61,758 nt of DNA from an uncultured Bacilli bacterium (GTDB lineage: Bacteria > Bacillota_I > Bacilli_A > RF39 > UBA660), in contig CANQGB010000002.1 of the NCBI GenBank assembly GCA_947600335.1, positions 1-61,758 on the forward strand, read 5' to 3'. How positions within the stretch are numbered: the first letter of the stretch is position 1; the number at the start of each line of letters is the position of its first letter. The notes beneath the pieces were generated by a model. The model was not told where the DNA came from. It searched no databases and worked only from the letters and a program-made list of their open reading frames with translations. Positions 19,868 through 34,664 of this stretch are shown piece by piece. A program made the position numbers and the translations under genes.

Positions 19868-21181
19868 TTAAAAATTTATAGGTACGATTTCACAGCCTCT
19901 TTTTATTTCTTGAATTTCCGCGGCATATAAAATCTTTCTAGTTGCCAATTTCCGGGCCATTTTTTCCAATAAATCTTTATTTAAAGCAATAATCTCTTTA
20001 GCCTTTAGATAATATTGATAAACTTGACTAGATATGACATATTCTTGAGATTCTTTTAGTTTATTAGAAATATCAAATGAATTTGAAAAATAATTAAATC
20101 CACAGATACAATCATCTAAAACTAAGTTTTTTACTAAACTAAAAGCTTTACTATAATCTTTACGAGCCCCAGAATCAACGATTCCAAATTTTTGTTCCAA
20201 GGCGGCCATTCCCCCTAAACTTATTAAAATGTTATATTTCATCCAATTCATATTTTCCATGCTAACATCTCGATAAATAGAGGTAAAACCCCCAGAGTTT
20301 CCTTCTTTCCCATAAGCTGTGATTAGACTAACACTTCCGGGCATTAATACTTCGGATATCAAAGCGTGTCCAACCTCATGATATATAATTCTTGATGAAA
20401 GCTCATTTCTATTTTGTAAATTGTCTAACCAATTATTACTTTCTTCTTCCCGAGCCACGGAAACTTTAAAAATAATTTGTAAACAAGCTTTTAAAATATG
20501 TTGCATAGTAATGTATTTTTCTCTTTCAAACCCAGCATATATCCCCGCTTGATTTATAACGGTTTCTAGTTCGGCACATGAACAACCATTTAAAATCTTC
20601 GCTAAAGATTTTATGTCTACATCTATTTTCATCTTTTTATTATTCAAATAATATTTAATGATATTTAAAGCATCCTCACCTACCGGATTTTTAATTTCGA
20701 TTCTTTGGTCAAATCGACCGGCTCTTAAAAGTGAATCCGGTAAATTTAGAATATTATTAGCGGTAGCTAAAACAAAGACATCCCGGCCTTTTACCTCATC
20801 AATACATGATTGGACGGTAACATATTCTTCGGCATCCTTGCGATGAATATCCCCATTCGCAAACTTATCCATATCATCTAAAAAGATTATCGCTGGGGCA
20901 TTATCTAAAGCCTTTTTAAACATACTTTTTAAATGATTGATAAAATCACCATTGGGTTTATCTTTTCGACAAACAAAACACTTTAAACCGGATGCCTCTA
21001 CTAAGCAATTAGCCATTAATGTTTTTCCAACTCCTGGTTCACCATAAAGTAACAAACCATTGGGTTTTGTTATTCCTAATTCAGAATATACTTTATCATT
21101 TTTTAAGATATCAGCAATTTGTTTTAATTCTTTTTTTACTGCACTATATCCAATAATTTTTTCAAATTCTTTCATACACAT
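19868..21181 (-). CDS. Soluble FtsH-like protein with no TM segments: an AAA+ ATPase fused to an M41-type zinc metalloprotease (HEVGH)
   Basis: Walker A GEPGVGKT, Walker B IIFLDDMD, second-region-of-homology-like LLRAGRFD, then HEVGHAL. There is no hydrophobic N-terminus. The start is at 21181 or 21175. Confidence 0.8.
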   Translation of the reverse strand: MCMKEFEKIIGYSAVKKELKQIADILKNDKVYSELGITKPNGLLLYGEPGVGKTLMANCLVEASGLKCFVCRKDKPNGDFINHLKSMFKKALDNAPAIIFLDDMDKFANGDIHRKDAEEYVTVQSCIDEVKGRDVFVLATANNILNLPDSLLRAGRFDQRIEIKNPVGEDALNIIKYYLNNKKMKIDVDIKSLAKILNGCSCAELETVINQAGIYAGFEREKYITMQHILKACLQIIFKVSVAREEESNNWLDNLQNRNELSSRIIYHEVGHALISEVLMPGSVSLITAYGKEGNSGGFTSIYRDVSMENMNWMKYNILISLGGMAALEQKFGIVDSGARKDYSKAFSLVKNLVLDDCICGFNYFSNSFDISNKLKESQEYVISSQVYQYYLKAKEIIALNKDLLEKMARKLATRKILYAAEIQEIKRGCEIVPINF

Positions 21182-21248
21182 ACTTCTTTCTTTTTTAAGA
21201 TTGAAGGTATTATATAAAAAGAAATGTACCATTTTTAGTACATTTTCA

Positions 21249-22223
21249 TTAATTTTTATACTTATCTATTCCCTTTAATAAATCCTTTTTAATTTGTTCT
21301 CTTAAAGTTAAAGGCGATATTATTTCTACACTGTTAAGATACTGCATAGCCCAATATTTCATGGCATTCGGACTAGCTTTAACGGTTACTTTAATGGTAT
21401 CTTCATTTTCTTCCATTTGGACATTGGTCCCAAACCATTCGACAATATCATCAATAATTGCTTTCTTCGCTCCAAAGACTATCGTTTGTAAATCATCAGT
21501 AAACAAATAAGGATAAGACGTTGATAATTCTTCATAATTAATTCCTTGTTCATAACCTTTTATATTATGAATATCTGTTAATTTATTATCGGTTAAAGAT
21601 ATATTGGTAATATGATCAACCCGATAATAAACAATATTTTGATAATACTCATGTAGAGCCATTAAATAATAATGTTGATTATGAACAATTAATTGATAAG
21701 GACTTACAGTATGACTCTTCGTAAAATGCAATTTTTTATCAATACCATATTTATTATAATCAAACTTAATTTGTAATTCTTTTTCAATAGCTTCATCAAT
21801 TTGTTCTATATTATAAAATAAACTTTTAGATTCCGTTTTATTCCATTCATTAACCGAGTAAATATTTTTAACATGGGCTTGAAAATACTTATTAGCTAAA
21901 CTACATAACTTATAAATTAAATCTTTAGAATAAGTAGCATTGATATATTTACTACATAAGACCCCATCAATTAAAACTCTTAATTCCGAATCTTCAAAAT
22001 CTCTTTCTTCTAAATAATTACCTAAATGGTTAGTTTCAATGGCATATCCCGCTTCTTTTAATAAAGATATATTTCGGCCAATGGCTTTTCTTTCAATAAT
22101 TATCCCATAATCATTTTCCAAATACTTTGCAATATCTTCTTGCGTTAAAGGATGATTTATATCCGTATGTTTTTTTAAAATATCTAAAATTCTTAATAAA
22201 GCCAATTTTTTCGATTCATTCAT
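21249..22223 (-). CDS. WYL-domain transcriptional regulator (wHTH-WYL-WCX, YafY/PafBC/BrxR-like architecture)
   Basis: N-terminal wHTH LRILDILKKHTDINHPLTQEDIAKYLENDYGIIIERKAIGRNISLLKEAGYAI. WYL-like core SPYQLIVHNQHYYLMALH...YYRVDHITNI. C-terminal WCX-like segment YWAMQYLNSVEIISPLTLREQI. AAGGTGA RBS. Confidence 0.8.
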   Translation of the reverse strand: MNESKKLALLRILDILKKHTDINHPLTQEDIAKYLENDYGIIIERKAIGRNISLLKEAGYAIETNHLGNYLEERDFEDSELRVLIDGVLCSKYINATYSKDLIYKLCSLANKYFQAHVKNIYSVNEWNKTESKSLFYNIEQIDEAIEKELQIKFDYNKYGIDKKLHFTKSHTVSPYQLIVHNQHYYLMALHEYYQNIVYYRVDHITNISLTDNKLTDIHNIKGYEQGINYEELSTSYPYLFTDDLQTIVFGAKKAIIDDIVEWFGTNVQMEENEDTIKVTVKASPNAMKYWAMQYLNSVEIISPLTLREQIKKDLLKGIDKYKN

Positions 22224-30299: not shown

Positions 30300-30328
30300 A
30301 TTATACACTTTCAAAAAATAAAAGTCAA
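30300..30328 (-). promoter_or_regulatory. Promoter TTGACT-17-TATAAT for the methyltransferase-rpoBC unit
   Basis: Read on the minus strand. Confidence 0.5.
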
Positions 30329-30395
30329 TAAGGACCTGGAAAGTTTTCTCAAACGTGAAATGAAAAATTAAAATCCAGTTTACACCAATTTTATG

Positions 30396-30707
30396 TTATG
30401 GTTTATTTCTATCTTTTATTTGAATACATGTACCATCAGTTTTATATATAGCCACACCATTTATGTCATTATATAGATTTAAACATCTTTCTAAAATATC
30501 ATCTATCGAAATAAATGGTGGTATATCATCTTCATCTATAATAGGGTCACACTCTGCAAAACCAATCATAAATCCTTCAATCGTCTTGCAATATGCCCCA
30601 ATTGAATATTTATTATTCTTTTCAAAATATACAATTCTATAGCCTTCATCATATTTACTACCATTTCCGGCATCAGTTAATTTTTCAGTTGAAATATCCA
30701 TATCCAC
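30396..30707 (-). CDS. Hypothetical acidic 101-103 aa protein translationally coupled to the ClpX-like gene
   Basis: The RBS TTAGGAG begins 1 nt after the upstream stop codon. The start is the GTG at 30707 or the ATG at 30701. No motif I recognise. Confidence 0.6.
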   Translation of the reverse strand: MDMDISTEKLTDAGNGSKYDEGYRIVYFEKNNKYSIGAYCKTIEGFMIGFAECDPIIDEDDIPPFISIDDILERCLNLYNDINGVAIYKTDGTCIQIKDRNKP

Positions 30708-30723
30708 TCAACTCCTAACTTTA

Positions 30724-32772
30724 CTAGTAAAGTTTTCGTGATAATTTTTGTGATTCATTTAAAGAAATTCGGCGGTTATCTTTCGTTATTAAAACACAGT
30801 CGTTGTTATCTATCGGTGCATTATCTAAAAGCAAAATAGCAGAATAATTTTCCAAATTCATTAAAACTTCCCAAAGTGCCTTTTTAATTGAATATTCAAC
30901 AATATTGCTTAAAGACCTAGCTCCAGTTTTCAATTTCATTGCTTGTTCAATAACATTATCGATATAACCCTCAGTCCACATTAATTGAATATTTAGTTGT
31001 GATAGCTTTTTTTGTAATAAGATTAAAGGACTTTTACTTGAAGACAACAAAATATTTTTTAAACTTTCTTTCGTATGACCTGAAAGTTGGACAATAATAT
31101 TGAAGCGTCCAATTAATTCAACTGGCATATGGCCATATTTGACAAAATCTTCTTGTTCTAATTTAACATAAGTGATATCTTCTTGTGGTTTAGTTTCTAA
31201 ATTAGCTAGATAACCAGCTTTACATTCGTGATATAATGTTCCAATACTATTTTTGGCTTTCGCTTCCGCTACATCAGTAAATGCTCCAGTAGCCAAGATT
31301 GTTAATTTAGAGGTATTAAACAGAATCATTCGCCCATTATATTCGACATTATAAGTTGTGCCTTGAAAAAATGCAAGAAATGTATTTAAAACGCCTTTTC
31401 CACTTACATGGCTATTAGATTCTGAACCCTTTTTATCTATTTCATCAAAAACAATAATACCTTCTTCAGCTTTTTCAACTATCCCATTAGCTTTAACTAA
31501 AAGTTGACGTAAAAAATCTTCAATGCTAGCCCCAACATAACCGGGCATAGTTAATTGAGTTGTATCGACAATTAATAAAGGTATATCTAAATATTCACTA
31601 ATAGTTTCCGCAATTAAAGTTTTACCACTACCTGTTGGTCCCACTAACAAACAAGACTTCTTGACGCGCTTATCTCCAACTTTATTCATAACAATAGTCG
31701 AAATTACATCTCTTTTAGCTTCTTCTTGCCCAATAACCACTTTATCCAAATATTTCTTCATTTTGGGAACATTTATTTGAGGTAATTTAGTTTTATTGTT
31801 CGATTTATCTTCTATAGCTGGAACTGGCATTTCTTCTGGTCTTAAATAATTTTGATAAGTTGCATAATTTTTAGCTATTTTTTGCATTCGTTGTTTGGAA
31901 CTTTCATGGATAGCCCTAATAGATGCTTTAATTAATTCTAAATCATTTAATTTTAATAACCTATCATAAGTATTTACTAAAGTATATAAAAATTCATTAG
32001 CCAAATTCGTATTCTTCGCATTTAGTGTATCTAACCAAACACTTAATTCCGTATAATAATCAATTAATTCATTGATACTTTTTTTCATTTCATCTAAATT
32101 ATCAAGACTAGCAAAAGCCTCATAACTTTGATTAAAAATATCTAATAATTCTTGACCATTATGCCAATATTCTTTCTTTTCGATTATTTCATCATTATCT
32201 ATAAAATTCTTAATTTGATTTAATTTAGTCATTACTTCATCATAAGTTTTGGAACTAATTAAGTCATTAAATAATTCTTCATTAATTAGAATGTTCATTT
32301 TTTCCTCATTAGCTTCCGGGATGTTAGATAATTCGGGTTGAGTAATCTTTGAAGCATCAAGATTAATTGTATGATTAGTAATGTGTAAATCATCAAGACT
32401 TAGGTTATAAAACATTTCTTTTAAATTTAAGGGAACTAAAGCAATAATATCTCTATCGGGTAAATAAAAACCTAAACTGGATATATCATAAATCTCATCA
32501 AAGTACCTAGATTTAGCCTCAACGATACTACAATCGGGATACTTAGCTAATAAATCACTTTCAGAAATAATGTAGCCAACACCACTTTGGTTTTCACTGT
32601 AAGTCATTTCGCCACTATAAATTGGAAAATACTCCATACCTATTGTATCTTGAAAATAAACATAATCATCTTCAATTATTTCTTGACCTTCGATAATGGC
32701 TGAAGGATTAAAATAATAAATATCTTCACTTAAATTAATTTTGATCATTAATATTGCATATTTTGTTTCCAT
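30724..32772 (-). CDS. ClpX-family AAA+ ATPase lacking the ClpX zinc-ribbon, with a novel ~340-aa N-terminal domain
   Basis: Residues ~340-682 match ClpX by eye: YLDKVVIGQEEAK, Walker A GPTGSGKT, pore loop GYVG, Walker B IIVFDEIDK, ELIGRFN, sensor-2 TGARSL. There is no N-terminal CxxC pair. Confidence 0.8.
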   Translation of the reverse strand: METKYAILMIKINLSEDIYYFNPSAIIEGQEIIEDDYVYFQDTIGMEYFPIYSGEMTYSENQSGVGYIISESDLLAKYPDCSIVEAKSRYFDEIYDISSLGFYLPDRDIIALVPLNLKEMFYNLSLDDLHITNHTINLDASKITQPELSNIPEANEEKMNILINEELFNDLISSKTYDEVMTKLNQIKNFIDNDEIIEKKEYWHNGQELLDIFNQSYEAFASLDNLDEMKKSINELIDYYTELSVWLDTLNAKNTNLANEFLYTLVNTYDRLLKLNDLELIKASIRAIHESSKQRMQKIAKNYATYQNYLRPEEMPVPAIEDKSNNKTKLPQINVPKMKKYLDKVVIGQEEAKRDVISTIVMNKVGDKRVKKSCLLVGPTGSGKTLIAETISEYLDIPLLIVDTTQLTMPGYVGASIEDFLRQLLVKANGIVEKAEEGIIVFDEIDKKGSESNSHVSGKGVLNTFLAFFQGTTYNVEYNGRMILFNTSKLTILATGAFTDVAEAKAKNSIGTLYHECKAGYLANLETKPQEDITYVKLEQEDFVKYGHMPVELIGRFNIIVQLSGHTKESLKNILLSSSKSPLILLQKKLSQLNIQLMWTEGYIDNVIEQAMKLKTGARSLSNIVEYSIKKALWEVLMNLENYSAILLLDNAPIDNNDCVLITKDNRRISLNESQKLSRKLY

Positions 32773-33014
32773 CTTTATCCCCTGCTTTTTAATTTAATGC
32801 TTATTATAACTAATATTTGGAAAAATGAAAACTATTTTTTATGATTATTACAGACCTAATTTTCTATATCATAAAAATAAAAGTTATTATTCTCCCATAT
32901 GTATTTGAGTTTTTAACATAATAACTTGGTTTATAAATTTTTGTAACTTACTTTACATTTACTAATTCTTGCAATATACGAAATACATCGATTTTACTAT
33001 TTACATTTTCTTCT

Positions 33015-34664
33015 TTAATTTCCTTGTTTCTTTGTTTCGGAACTTAATGATGATTTATAATTATCATAATTTCCTAAATATTCTTTTGCTTTACCGTTTT
33101 CAAATACAATTATTTTATCTGCAAATTTATTTATAAAATATCTATCATGACTAATAAAGATCAAAGTACCTGTAAAATCTTCCAATGCTTCTTCCAATAC
33201 TTCTTTAGTAGGTATATCAATATGGTTAGTTGGTTCATCAAAAATTAAAGTATTTACTTCTTGTTGCAAAAGTTCAGCCATTTTAACTTTCATTTTCTCT
33301 CCACCTGATAAATTTTTAACTCTTTTGGCAACATCTTCTACATTAAATTTAAATCTTGCTAATATGCTTCGACATCTTTGTTCTGGTAATCCAACTGCTC
33401 TATTAAAATATTCTAGTAAAGATTGATCTCCTTTTTCAAATTCTATCATTTGAGGTATATATCCTATTTTAACACTTGGGCCTATAAATACATCACCACT
33501 TATTGGTAAAGTTTGCTCCCCCATAATTGTTTTGACAAAAGTAGATTTTCCTGTTCCATTTTCTCCTAAAATTGCTACTCTCTCCCCAGCACAAATTTCT
33601 AAATTTATGTCATTAATAATCGGTGTCCCATCATCTGTAGAAACTGATAAATCATTAGTTATTATTATTTTTTTACTAGTTTTATTTTGTTCTAGAAAAG
33701 ACATATTTAATTTTTTTTGCTCAACTGGTTTTTTTATTGCTTTTTCTCTCATTCTTTGAGCTCTTTCCCATAAAGTCTTCCCTTGCTTCGTTAAAGAAGA
33801 ACTATTCCTACTCATACCTAAATTCATGAATTGTTTAGCTTTTGCTTCTAGTTGTTTAATGGCTTCTTGTTCATCACCATATTGTGTTAATCGTTTTTCA
33901 AATTCCTTTTCACGTTGTTCTAAATATCCTGTATAATTTGTTGTATAAACTTTACTAATTCCATAATCATCCACTGCTAATATTTGATTAGCCATTTTAT
34001 CTAAGAAATATCTATCGTGTGATACTATAACAGACGCTCCTTTAAAAGACTTAATATAGCTCTCTAACCATTCAATTCTTTTTAAATCTAAGTGATTTGT
34101 TGGTTCATCAAGCAATAATAAATCTGGTCCTATTAATAAAGCTTTTGCTAATTGAACTAAAGTTTTTTCTCCACCCGATAGAGTACTATAAGAATGATTT
34201 AACATATCAGAGTCTAATTCTAAACCATTTATTACTGTATTAATTTTTACACCTACATCATATCCACCAATTAAATTAAATTTCTCTAGTAAAGCACAAT
34301 ATTTTTCTAAAAGAACCTCATTATTACAATCTTGATTTACTTTTAATTCACACTCTTTTAATTGTTTCTCAACTTCATTAATTTCAATAAAAGCATCCTT
34401 TAGTATTTCATAAACAGTTCTATCATCTTTTATATTTGATCCTAATTGATCTAAATAGGCAACTTTTGCTCCTTTTTTGATACTAACTGTACCCTTATCT
34501 GGTGTTTCAAATCCTGCAATTATTTTTAAAATAGTTGATTTTCCGCAACCATTTGGTCCAACAATAGCAACTGATTCTCCCTCATTAAGGGTAAAAGATA
34601 TATCCTCAAATAATTGTCCGTATCCAAAATTTTTCGCTAACTTATTAACATCAAGTATTAACAT
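33015..34664 (-). CDS. ABC-F family ATPase (two ABC cassettes, no TM domain). Housekeeping versus antibiotic-resistance subtype is undetermined
   Basis: Two copies of Walker A (GPNGCGKST, GENGTGKST), two LSGGEK signatures, and a long charged interdomain linker. Confidence 0.9.
   Translation of the reverse strand: MLILDVNKLAKNFGYGQLFEDISFTLNEGESVAIVGPNGCGKSTILKIIAGFETPDKGTVSIKKGAKVAYLDQLGSNIKDDRTVYEILKDAFIEINEVEKQLKECELKVNQDCNNEVLLEKYCALLEKFNLIGGYDVGVKINTVINGLELDSDMLNHSYSTLSGGEKTLVQLAKALLIGPDLLLLDEPTNHLDLKRIEWLESYIKSFKGASVIVSHDRYFLDKMANQILAVDDYGISKVYTTNYTGYLEQREKEFEKRLTQYGDEQEAIKQLEAKAKQFMNLGMSRNSSSLTKQGKTLWERAQRMREKAIKKPVEQKKLNMSFLEQNKTSKKIIITNDLSVSTDDGTPIINDINLEICAGERVAILGENGTGKSTFVKTIMGEQTLPISGDVFIGPSVKIGYIPQMIEFEKGDQSLLEYFNRAVGLPEQRCRSILARFKFNVEDVAKRVKNLSGGEKMKVKMAELLQQEVNTLIFDEPTNHIDIPTKEVLEEALEDFTGTLIFISHDRYFINKFADKIIVFENGKAKEYLGNYDNYKSSLSSETKKQGN

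Follow-up and report, generated by a model that had tools for sequence, protein, structure and literature searches.

This report concerns a locus in a 61,758-nucleotide stretch of DNA (the whole of it hereafter called the window) from an uncultured Bacilli bacterium of the RF39 lineage (GenBank assembly GCA_947600335.1, contig CANQGB010000002.1), with a G+C content of about 28% throughout. Two open reading frames (ORFs) lie there on the minus strand with 16 nt between them: a gene for a ClpX-like AAA+ unfoldase of 682 aa, running from an ATG to a TAG stop at 30724-30726 (whole gene 30724-32772), and a small conserved ORF of 103 aa when read from its GTG (30396-30707). Both had been pointed out, together with a full set of ClpX motifs in the larger product, in a first reading of the sequence (the original prediction), and both ORFs and motifs are confirmed here. 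The 682-aa protein is a member of a ClpX-like subfamily, as yet undescribed, that is widespread among uncultured low-GC Bacilli and whose N-terminal domain is new.

The AAA+ half of the protein is a ClpX-type engine with Walker A and B, a GYVG pore-1 loop, an arginine finger and sensor-2. The motifs VIGQEEAK, GPTGSGKT (Walker A, residues 378-385; minus strand, 31618-31641), GYVG (pore-1, residues 411-414; minus strand, 31531-31542), IIVFDEIDK (with Walker B DEIDK; minus strand, 31432-31446), ELIGRFN and TGARSL are all present, the arginine finger being R556 and sensor-2 R619. Pfam assigns AAA_2 (residues 372-560) and ClpB_D2-small (residues 584-638), and we place the module at residues 334-682 (minus strand, 30727-31773) on the combined grounds of Pfam, NCBIfam, invariant columns, and matches to Protein Data Bank (PDB) sequences and folds. 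Against PDB sequences, all top matches of this half were ClpX (E = 1e-39), with HslU next at 1e-19. A full-length AlphaFold2 model (AF2; mean predicted local distance difference test score, pLDDT, 82) gave the same result in a fold search, its best 50 matches all being ClpX with template modelling (TM) scores, normalised to the target, of 0.70-0.87. In an alignment of 52 family sequences, G378-T385, Y412, G414, E444, D446, R556 and R619 are invariant.

Sequence comparison nonetheless sets this ATPase apart as a member of a distinct, fast-evolving ClpX-like subfamily rather than canonical ClpX, because it falls below the NCBIfam cut-offs, is distant from ClpX in identity and carries a deletion in the RKH loop. 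The two ClpX equivalog models match residues 325-656 only, with 192.9 bits against a cut-off of 359 (NF003745) and 171.3 against 370.75 (TIGR00382); the HslU equivalog TIGR00390 scores lower still (75.6 bits against a cut-off of 362), placing the protein outside HslU as well. Compared with canonical ClpX sequences of eight lineages, the engine reaches 32-38% identity, whereas these are mostly 59-69% identical among themselves (44-55% for one divergent sequence, 82% for one pair). Finally, the RKH loop is 7 residues shorter, E. coli PPQGGRKHPQQEF standing opposite EYN-------GRM of the window protein, and the same 7-residue deletion occurs in every family member displayed in a MAFFT alignment of 129 sequences.

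The N-terminal region is equally unlike that of ClpX. The zinc-ribbon, predicted at the outset to be missing, is indeed absent, with no CxxC pairs in residues 1-330 and no zf-C4_ClpX match in Pfam. In the models, the C4 zinc-binding domain (ZBD) is replaced by a new alpha/beta domain, an optional four-helix bundle and a flexible linker. When the N-terminal region was modelled alone by AlphaFold from an alignment of 30 sequences, the mean pLDDT was 84. The family-defining alpha/beta domain (residues 1-126; minus strand, 32395-32772) is predicted with a pLDDT above 90 and has conserved Y19, P23, G29, F40, D42, Y48, L74, A86, Y90 and G101. Beyond a low-confidence spacer, the AF2 helices form a bundle (residues 165-310; minus strand, 31843-32280), and a predicted disordered linker of variable length and sequence (residues 311-333; minus strand, 31774-31842; pLDDT < 50 at 312-330) leads into the engine. 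The bundle is optional in that it is missing from P0025, P0044, P0052 and P0112, and in members of 520-560 aa the alpha/beta domain runs almost straight into the engine. Sequence and profile searches with residues 1-330 found no match in Pfam, NCBIfam, PHROGs, PADLOC or PDB sequences, and Foldseek with the N-terminal model against PDB and BFVD returned nothing at E <= 0.001, hence no relative for the alpha/beta domain; the helical part drew generic four-helix-bundle matches only (hemerythrin, cytochrome b562, FliS), all at E >= 0.1. The earlier judgement that this region could not be assigned is thus upheld by sequence, profile and structure searches alike.

The family is large. Full-length homologues of the 682-aa protein number more than 100, at 37-55% identity, and a profile of the N-terminal 128 residues retrieved 237 clusters at 50% identity from among 1.84 billion representatives, the domain lying always at residues ~1-130 of the matching proteins. 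With at least 237 such clusters the family is common in animal-gut metagenomes; genomes that carry it include GCA_947631515.1, GCA_947631105.1, GCA_947628235.1 and JGI 3300056808 Ga0558721_00056, and its named source organisms are metagenome-assembled genomes labelled 'Bacilli bacterium' or 'Firmicutes bacterium'. A metagenome scan with a hand-made pattern, DTTQLT.PGYVG, yielded 10 loci, and a scan of genome contigs (full-length alignment, with Walker A and DEIDKKG patterns) gave mostly canonical ClpX and one family member, L003. We found no description of this ClpX-like family in the literature, in agreement with the original prediction, which knew of no described system with such an architecture. 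Among viral contigs, the best 80 loci hold canonical-type ClpX matches over residues ~246-682 only and none to residues 1-245. The 682-aa protein does match phrog_4339, a family of unknown function, at E = 4e-46. Alongside the family proper we observed ClpX-like proteins of 563-587 aa with a different, shorter N-terminal region (L096:7140-8903, L097:2608-4299, L104:10976-12721), which share the DTTQLT.PGYVG pattern, the RKH deletion and the IGF tripeptide with the family; given the phrog_4339 match, some proteins of this type may be phage-borne.

Bearing on whether the protein works with ClpP is the loop by which ClpX docks onto that protease. At the position of the ClpX IGF loop the window protein has the tripeptide A-G-Y (residues 519-521; minus strand, 31210-31218): HMMER and the 129-sequence alignment, which includes enterobacterial ClpX, agree in setting K-AGY-LA of the window opposite G-IGF-GA of E. 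coli. The original prediction had read this position as '...NSIGTLYHE...', which was a mis-registration, since NSIGT lies nine residues upstream of the true site. Across the 129 sequences the tripeptide is IGF in 98, MGF in 9, IGY in 8, AGF in 5 and LGF in 3, with VGY and VGF twice each and MGY and AGY once each, the single AGY being that of the window. The glycine (Gly520) is invariant although the flanking loop is hypervariable, and the loop is predicted to be flexible (pLDDT < 50 at residues 512-526), just as the IGF loop of ClpX is disordered. That the tripeptide is kept amid an overall identity of 37-55% argues for a docking partner, and the alignment indicates that the flexible loop docking ClpX onto ClpP is retained in the family. 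The alanine at the first position of the tripeptide, shared with the five AGF members, leaves the docking strength of the window protein uncertain. A second 'IGF' in the protein, the LGF that the original prediction had seen in the N-terminal region, does exist there, but it does not resemble a docking loop: it is the window's version, SLGFY, of a conserved H-I-G-F-Y motif (residues 97-101; minus strand, 32470-32484) within a predicted beta-strand, G101 being conserved in at least 90% of sequences, and from the model its role is probably structural rather than one of docking.

Further support for the tripeptide comes from relatives that bear the same N-domain on another motor. Nine N-domain proteins (P0267, P0296, P0302, P0324, P0338, P0350, P0358, P0368 and P0382) carry PF00004 and AAA_lid_6 with GNPGTGKT and FGNGR signatures, that is, a SpoVK/CbbX-type engine. 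All nine have [ILM]GF within their last 15 residues (...KVKKIGF, ...KNKIGF), for which the chance expectation is 0.007 per protein. Two such genes stand in tandem directly before hisS-aspS at L105 (8001-11992), and at L107 (8001-10214) a ClpX-type member, P0016, occupies the same place. These two loci are very closely related, with hisS proteins 97% identical and hisS-aspS DNA 94% identical, and the first ~345 residues of their ATPases are 79% identical (84% in DNA), yet the engines are without any similarity. Very close relatives have thus traded one motor for another and preserved the head and an IGF peptide, and this swap is the strongest indirect support both for a functional tripeptide and for the N-domain as the specificity part. 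The N-domain was also observed on proteins of 450-520 aa without an ATPase (P0337, P0354, P0334), each with a helical C-terminal part to which Pfam assigns nothing; such proteins might act on their own as adaptors, or compete with the unfoldases.

It is tempting to see in these proteins an unrecognised class of ClpP-coupled unfoldases defined by the N-domain, in which a substrate-selecting head is kept and the motor is either ClpX-type with an internal IGF loop or SpoVK/CbbX-type, docking by an IGF tail at its C-terminus much as proteasomal ATPases use their HbYX tails. We regard this wider scheme as tentative and somewhat short of probable. We found no SpoVK-type AAA+ protein with a C-terminal IGF tail in the literature, and to our knowledge no SpoVK- or CbbX-type protein has been described with one. 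Should the scheme hold, ClpP would have a new kind of partner in the SpoVK-type members, and the engine swap between near-identical genomes would amount to a natural experiment on replacing the motor. The swap at a single locus also makes it testable whether a flexible IGF peptide on any hexameric AAA+ ring is all that ClpP docking requires. The interchangeable, IGF-tailed motors lie in related loci outside the window, and may be of greater interest than the gene within it.

The small downstream ORF had been taken for a dedicated partner of the ATPase, the two forming a translationally coupled module. The ribosome-binding site (RBS) TTAGGAG, placed in the original prediction 1 nt past the ATPase stop, in fact begins 6 nt after the TAG; its AGGAG (30712-30716) is 4 nt from the GTG and 10 nt from an ATG at 30701. 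The methionine encoded there (M3) is invariant and is the start in all 28 aligned homologues, so that a protein of 101 aa (30396-30701) is most likely on alignment grounds. The gene is conserved, with 194 homologues at no more than 90% identity. Its product has no Pfam, NCBIfam or PADLOC match at E <= 1, the weak matches being one in PHROGs at E = 0.074 (13.8 bits) and a best PDB sequence at E = 0.13, which is not significant.

Homologues elsewhere, 55-90% identical to the window copy, have no ATPase nearby. Their contexts, at nine other loci, differ: one lies between epimerase and ABC-transporter genes near hrcA-grpE-dnaK, and others have TetR, amidase, Bro-N, TnpB and Abi_2 neighbours, or follow a 263-aa HExxH protein or a 594-aa membrane protein. 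No ATPase, N-domain or engine occurs within 5-6 kb at these nine loci (checked with hidden Markov models on four). Conversely, a profile of the small protein found nothing among the ORFs of the 16 other ATPase loci (0/16), so that the two genes stand together in one of 17 ATPase loci, that of the window; in the two closest relatives, L001 and L083, there is no room for the small gene because the gaps concerned are only 86 and 104 nt. The claim of a two-gene module is therefore withdrawn, the genes being unlinked in 16 other ATPase loci and at nine other small-gene loci, the very lack of linkage that the prediction had named as telling against it. A 99-aa ORF following the ATPase in L086 was considered as a conserved downstream partner and rejected as unrelated to the small ORF of the window (E = 0.92).

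The DNA itself suggests how the neighbours met. A cassette of 340 bp (minus strand, 30385-30724), made up of the RBS, the small ORF and a further 11 nt, is 87% identical by blastn to a stand-alone gene of another organism (L088), and the matching stretch has its first base precisely at the stop codon of the ATPase gene and runs to 11 nt past the small ORF. The gene in L088 has its own TATAAT-like box and hairpin terminator, both of which the window copy lacks. On the simplest reading of this alignment, a 340-bp piece ended up behind the ATPase gene and ahead of the conserved promoter of the methyltransferase gene beyond it; in the window the small ORF, if expressed at all, probably depends on read-through from the ATPase gene. 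It might be argued that, after this downstream insertion, the small ORF was recruited in this organism alone as a new partner of the ATPase, be it adaptor, substrate or inhibitor. The spacing is short (16 nt from the ATPase stop to the listed GTG, 22 nt to the likely ATG), a good AGGAG stands 10 nt before the ATG, neither a promoter nor a terminator of its own was detected, and M-I-G-F occurs, partly conserved, in the small protein. We nevertheless consider such a recruitment very improbable, as the association is seen in one of 17 ATPase loci and at none of the nine other small-gene loci, copies 55-90% identical exist without an ATPase nearby, and two other contexts place the small gene behind the 263-aa HExxH protein or its remnant. 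Since such copies occur away from any ATPase, the function of the small protein would be independent of it, and the comparison points to a separately conserved small gene unrelated to the ATPase; it should not be annotated as the partner of this enzyme. At L189 (4176-5315) the small ORF follows 33 nt after the 263-aa protein, which has an HEIEH motif, and at L088 (5748-6321) a 72-aa C-terminal remnant of the 263-aa protein (51% identical) lies just upstream. It may be that this HExxH protein is the real partner of the small protein.

As for the surroundings of the ATPase gene, 16 other ClpX-like loci were compared, 12 of which have the N-domain. The original prediction had placed the gene in the slot ahead of ybxB-rpoBC that rplJ-rplL usually occupy. 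This holds in the window and in the two closest relatives, L001 and L083, where the order is HD-ATPase-methyltransferase-rpoB-rpoC with 86 and 104 nt between ATPase and methyltransferase genes; elsewhere it does not, other members being followed by hisS-aspS (2-nt spacing), rplS, a tandem paralogue of 759-766 aa, or unrelated genes. The TTGACT-17-TATAAT promoter of the methyltransferase-rpoB-rpoC unit (minus strand, 30300-30328), also part of the original prediction, is confirmed as an 11/12 match to consensus and recurs as TTGACT-17-TAGAAT and TTGACT-17-TAAAAT in L001 and L083. We accept it because of this conservation, for a consensus match alone arises at chance frequency: in the AT-rich stretch 20 promoter-like sites were observed against 20.4 expected from shuffles. 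By the same measure a candidate promoter of the ATPase gene, TTTTCA-17-TATAAT (minus strand, 32803-32831), is weak. The AGGGGA RBS of this gene (minus strand, 32778-32783) is as originally described and ends 5 nt ahead of the ATG.

Some further observations were made in these neighbourhoods. In the window a gene for a 549-aa ABC-F-type ATPase (33015-34664; two ABC_tran domains and ABC_tran_Xtn) lies between the HD and ATPase genes; it is absent from the same place in L001 and L083, which makes this the second local event, by insertion or rearrangement, next to the ATPase. Directly downstream of rpoC, at 19868-21232 and 21249-22223, are genes for a WYL-domain protein of 324 aa and for a short, FtsH-like one of 454 aa (AAA 60-181, Peptidase_M41 280-443), in which the usual N-terminal transmembrane region is seemingly missing. 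Rfam and tRNA scans found nothing near the locus, and there is no transfer-messenger RNA (tmRNA) in the window. Tandem paralogues occur at L084 (5001-9351), L101 (826-5125) and L103 (2734-7126), where a member of 672-703 aa is followed after 2 nt by a paralogue of 759-766 aa. The paralogue shares the N-domain, has GPTGTGKT as a variant Walker A, reads IGY where the docking tripeptide stands, and is itself followed by hisS-aspS.

The ATPase changes rapidly compared with the genes around it. Between the window and its closest relative, L001, rpoB is 90% identical, ftsK 80%, the HD phosphohydrolase 71% and the methyltransferase 66%, as against 55% for the whole ATPase, 44% for its N-terminal region and 65% for its engine. 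On these identities the ATPase family evolves fast, much faster than neighbouring core genes. A role in conflict, anti-phage or inter-bacterial, instead of in proteostasis would explain the rapid evolution (55% identity where rpoB has 90%), the tandem paralogues (682 and 759-766 aa) and the domain shuffling seen in the engine swaps. It could also draw on the phrog_4339 match (E = 4e-46) and on weak AAA matches to IetA and DolB in PADLOC (E = 1e-7) and to IteA in NCBIfam (18.7 bits against a cut-off of 510). However, the PADLOC and IteA matches cover the generic P-loop region only and lie far below family level, and residues 1-245 found no counterpart in the best 80 viral contigs. Moreover, the 12 full-length family neighbourhoods examined all consist of core housekeeping genes (rpoBC, hisS-aspS, rplS, relA-dtd), with no defence island. 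A component of a conflict system is on this evidence distinctly unlikely.

We favour instead, and think fairly likely, a picture in which the 682-aa protein represents a ClpP-coupled ClpX-like subfamily, its head acting as a specificity module and the small ORF having nothing to do with it. The enzyme would be a hexameric AAA+ unfoldase whose N-terminal head binds clients or adaptors, or localises the enzyme, and whose engine would feed clients by way of the GYVG pore into ClpP, to which it would be docked by the [ILMVA]G[FY] loop tripeptides. Its clients would differ from the ZBD/SspB-dependent and ssrA-tagged clients of ClpX, since the ZBD and the RKH loop have been lost.

Several considerations weigh against this picture. 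The A-G-Y of the window is unique among the 129 sequences, so this particular protein may dock weakly or not at all. No clpP was found in the window of 61.8 kb, nor in any of the family loci fetched (5-20 kb per genome). That the C-terminal IGF tails dock ClpP we infer by analogy, and the role given to the N-domain is likewise what we infer for a domain to which searches by structure and by sequence found no relative. A housekeeping protease partner, besides, would not usually evolve so fast, form tandem paralogues or swap engines. Some of the same facts would suit a ClpP-independent remodeller, as originally predicted: a disassembly chaperone acting alone, the loop tripeptide being a relic. 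The A-G-Y form seen once in 129, the lack of clpP in the window and fetched loci, and the missing RKH loop and ZBD are all in keeping with it, and many Mycoplasma-like reduced Bacilli are without ClpP. We found no account of the ClpP status of RF39-like Bacilli in the literature. Yet the argument for independence had rested on the mis-registered loop. Proteins only 37-55% identical retain [ILMVA]G[FY] inside a hypervariable loop, with Gly520 never varying; the engine-swapped relatives re-create the same tripeptide as a C-terminal tail in nine cases out of nine, which is hard to explain without a docking partner. Nor does the missing clpP say much, as clpX and clpP are commonly unlinked in Firmicutes; a second clpX was likewise not found in the window or the fetched loci, and both absences say little because 5-20 kb per genome is visible. 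We therefore hold a ClpP-independent remodeller to be unlikely.

ClpX ranks among the most thoroughly studied AAA+ machines, and the elements credited with its choice of substrates are the zinc-binding domain, the RKH loops and the pore loops. The present family, large and natural, is without two of these three elements (ZBD and RKH) and has a new, confidently predicted N-domain. If it is coupled to ClpP, it would offer a separate route of substrate selection for Clp proteolysis in poorly known Bacilli with reduced genomes. Proteins of the family are at present either unnamed or annotated as 'ClpX', and should count as a separate subfamily.

Among known systems the closest is ClpX itself (TIGR00382/NF003745; PDB 6PO1, 6WRF, 6VFS), with which the 682-aa protein has in common the single-ring AAA+ fold (TM 0.70-0.87), Walker A and B, GYVG, the arginine finger, sensor-2 TGAR, the C-terminal small domain and, at the IGF position, a flexible loop with an x-G-[FY] tripeptide. 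Unlike ClpX, the family has a 126-aa alpha/beta domain and a helical bundle in place of the C4 zinc-binding domain, an RKH loop 7 residues shorter and a score of about half the equivalog cut-off, and the window copy reads AGY for IGF. The mitochondrial ClpX-like chaperone (PDB 9DVY, 9YKX; sequence match at E = 4e-35) also has a ClpX engine, and its divergent RKH-equivalent loop, which does not recognise bacterial ssrA tags, goes with altered substrate selection; unlike the 682-aa protein it keeps the zinc-binding N-domain, has an E-domain insertion and belongs to a eukaryotic lineage. In overall layout the protein resembles Lon-A, in which a beta-rich N-domain and a helical bundle precede the AAA+ module. 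This is an analogy only, as there is no Lon N-domain among the fold matches, no protease domain in cis and no sequence similarity. The SpoVK/CbbX-type ATPases (PF00004 and AAA_lid_6), finally, are linked to the family through the N-domain that they share with it in relatives of the window protein, which itself has the ClpX-type engine.

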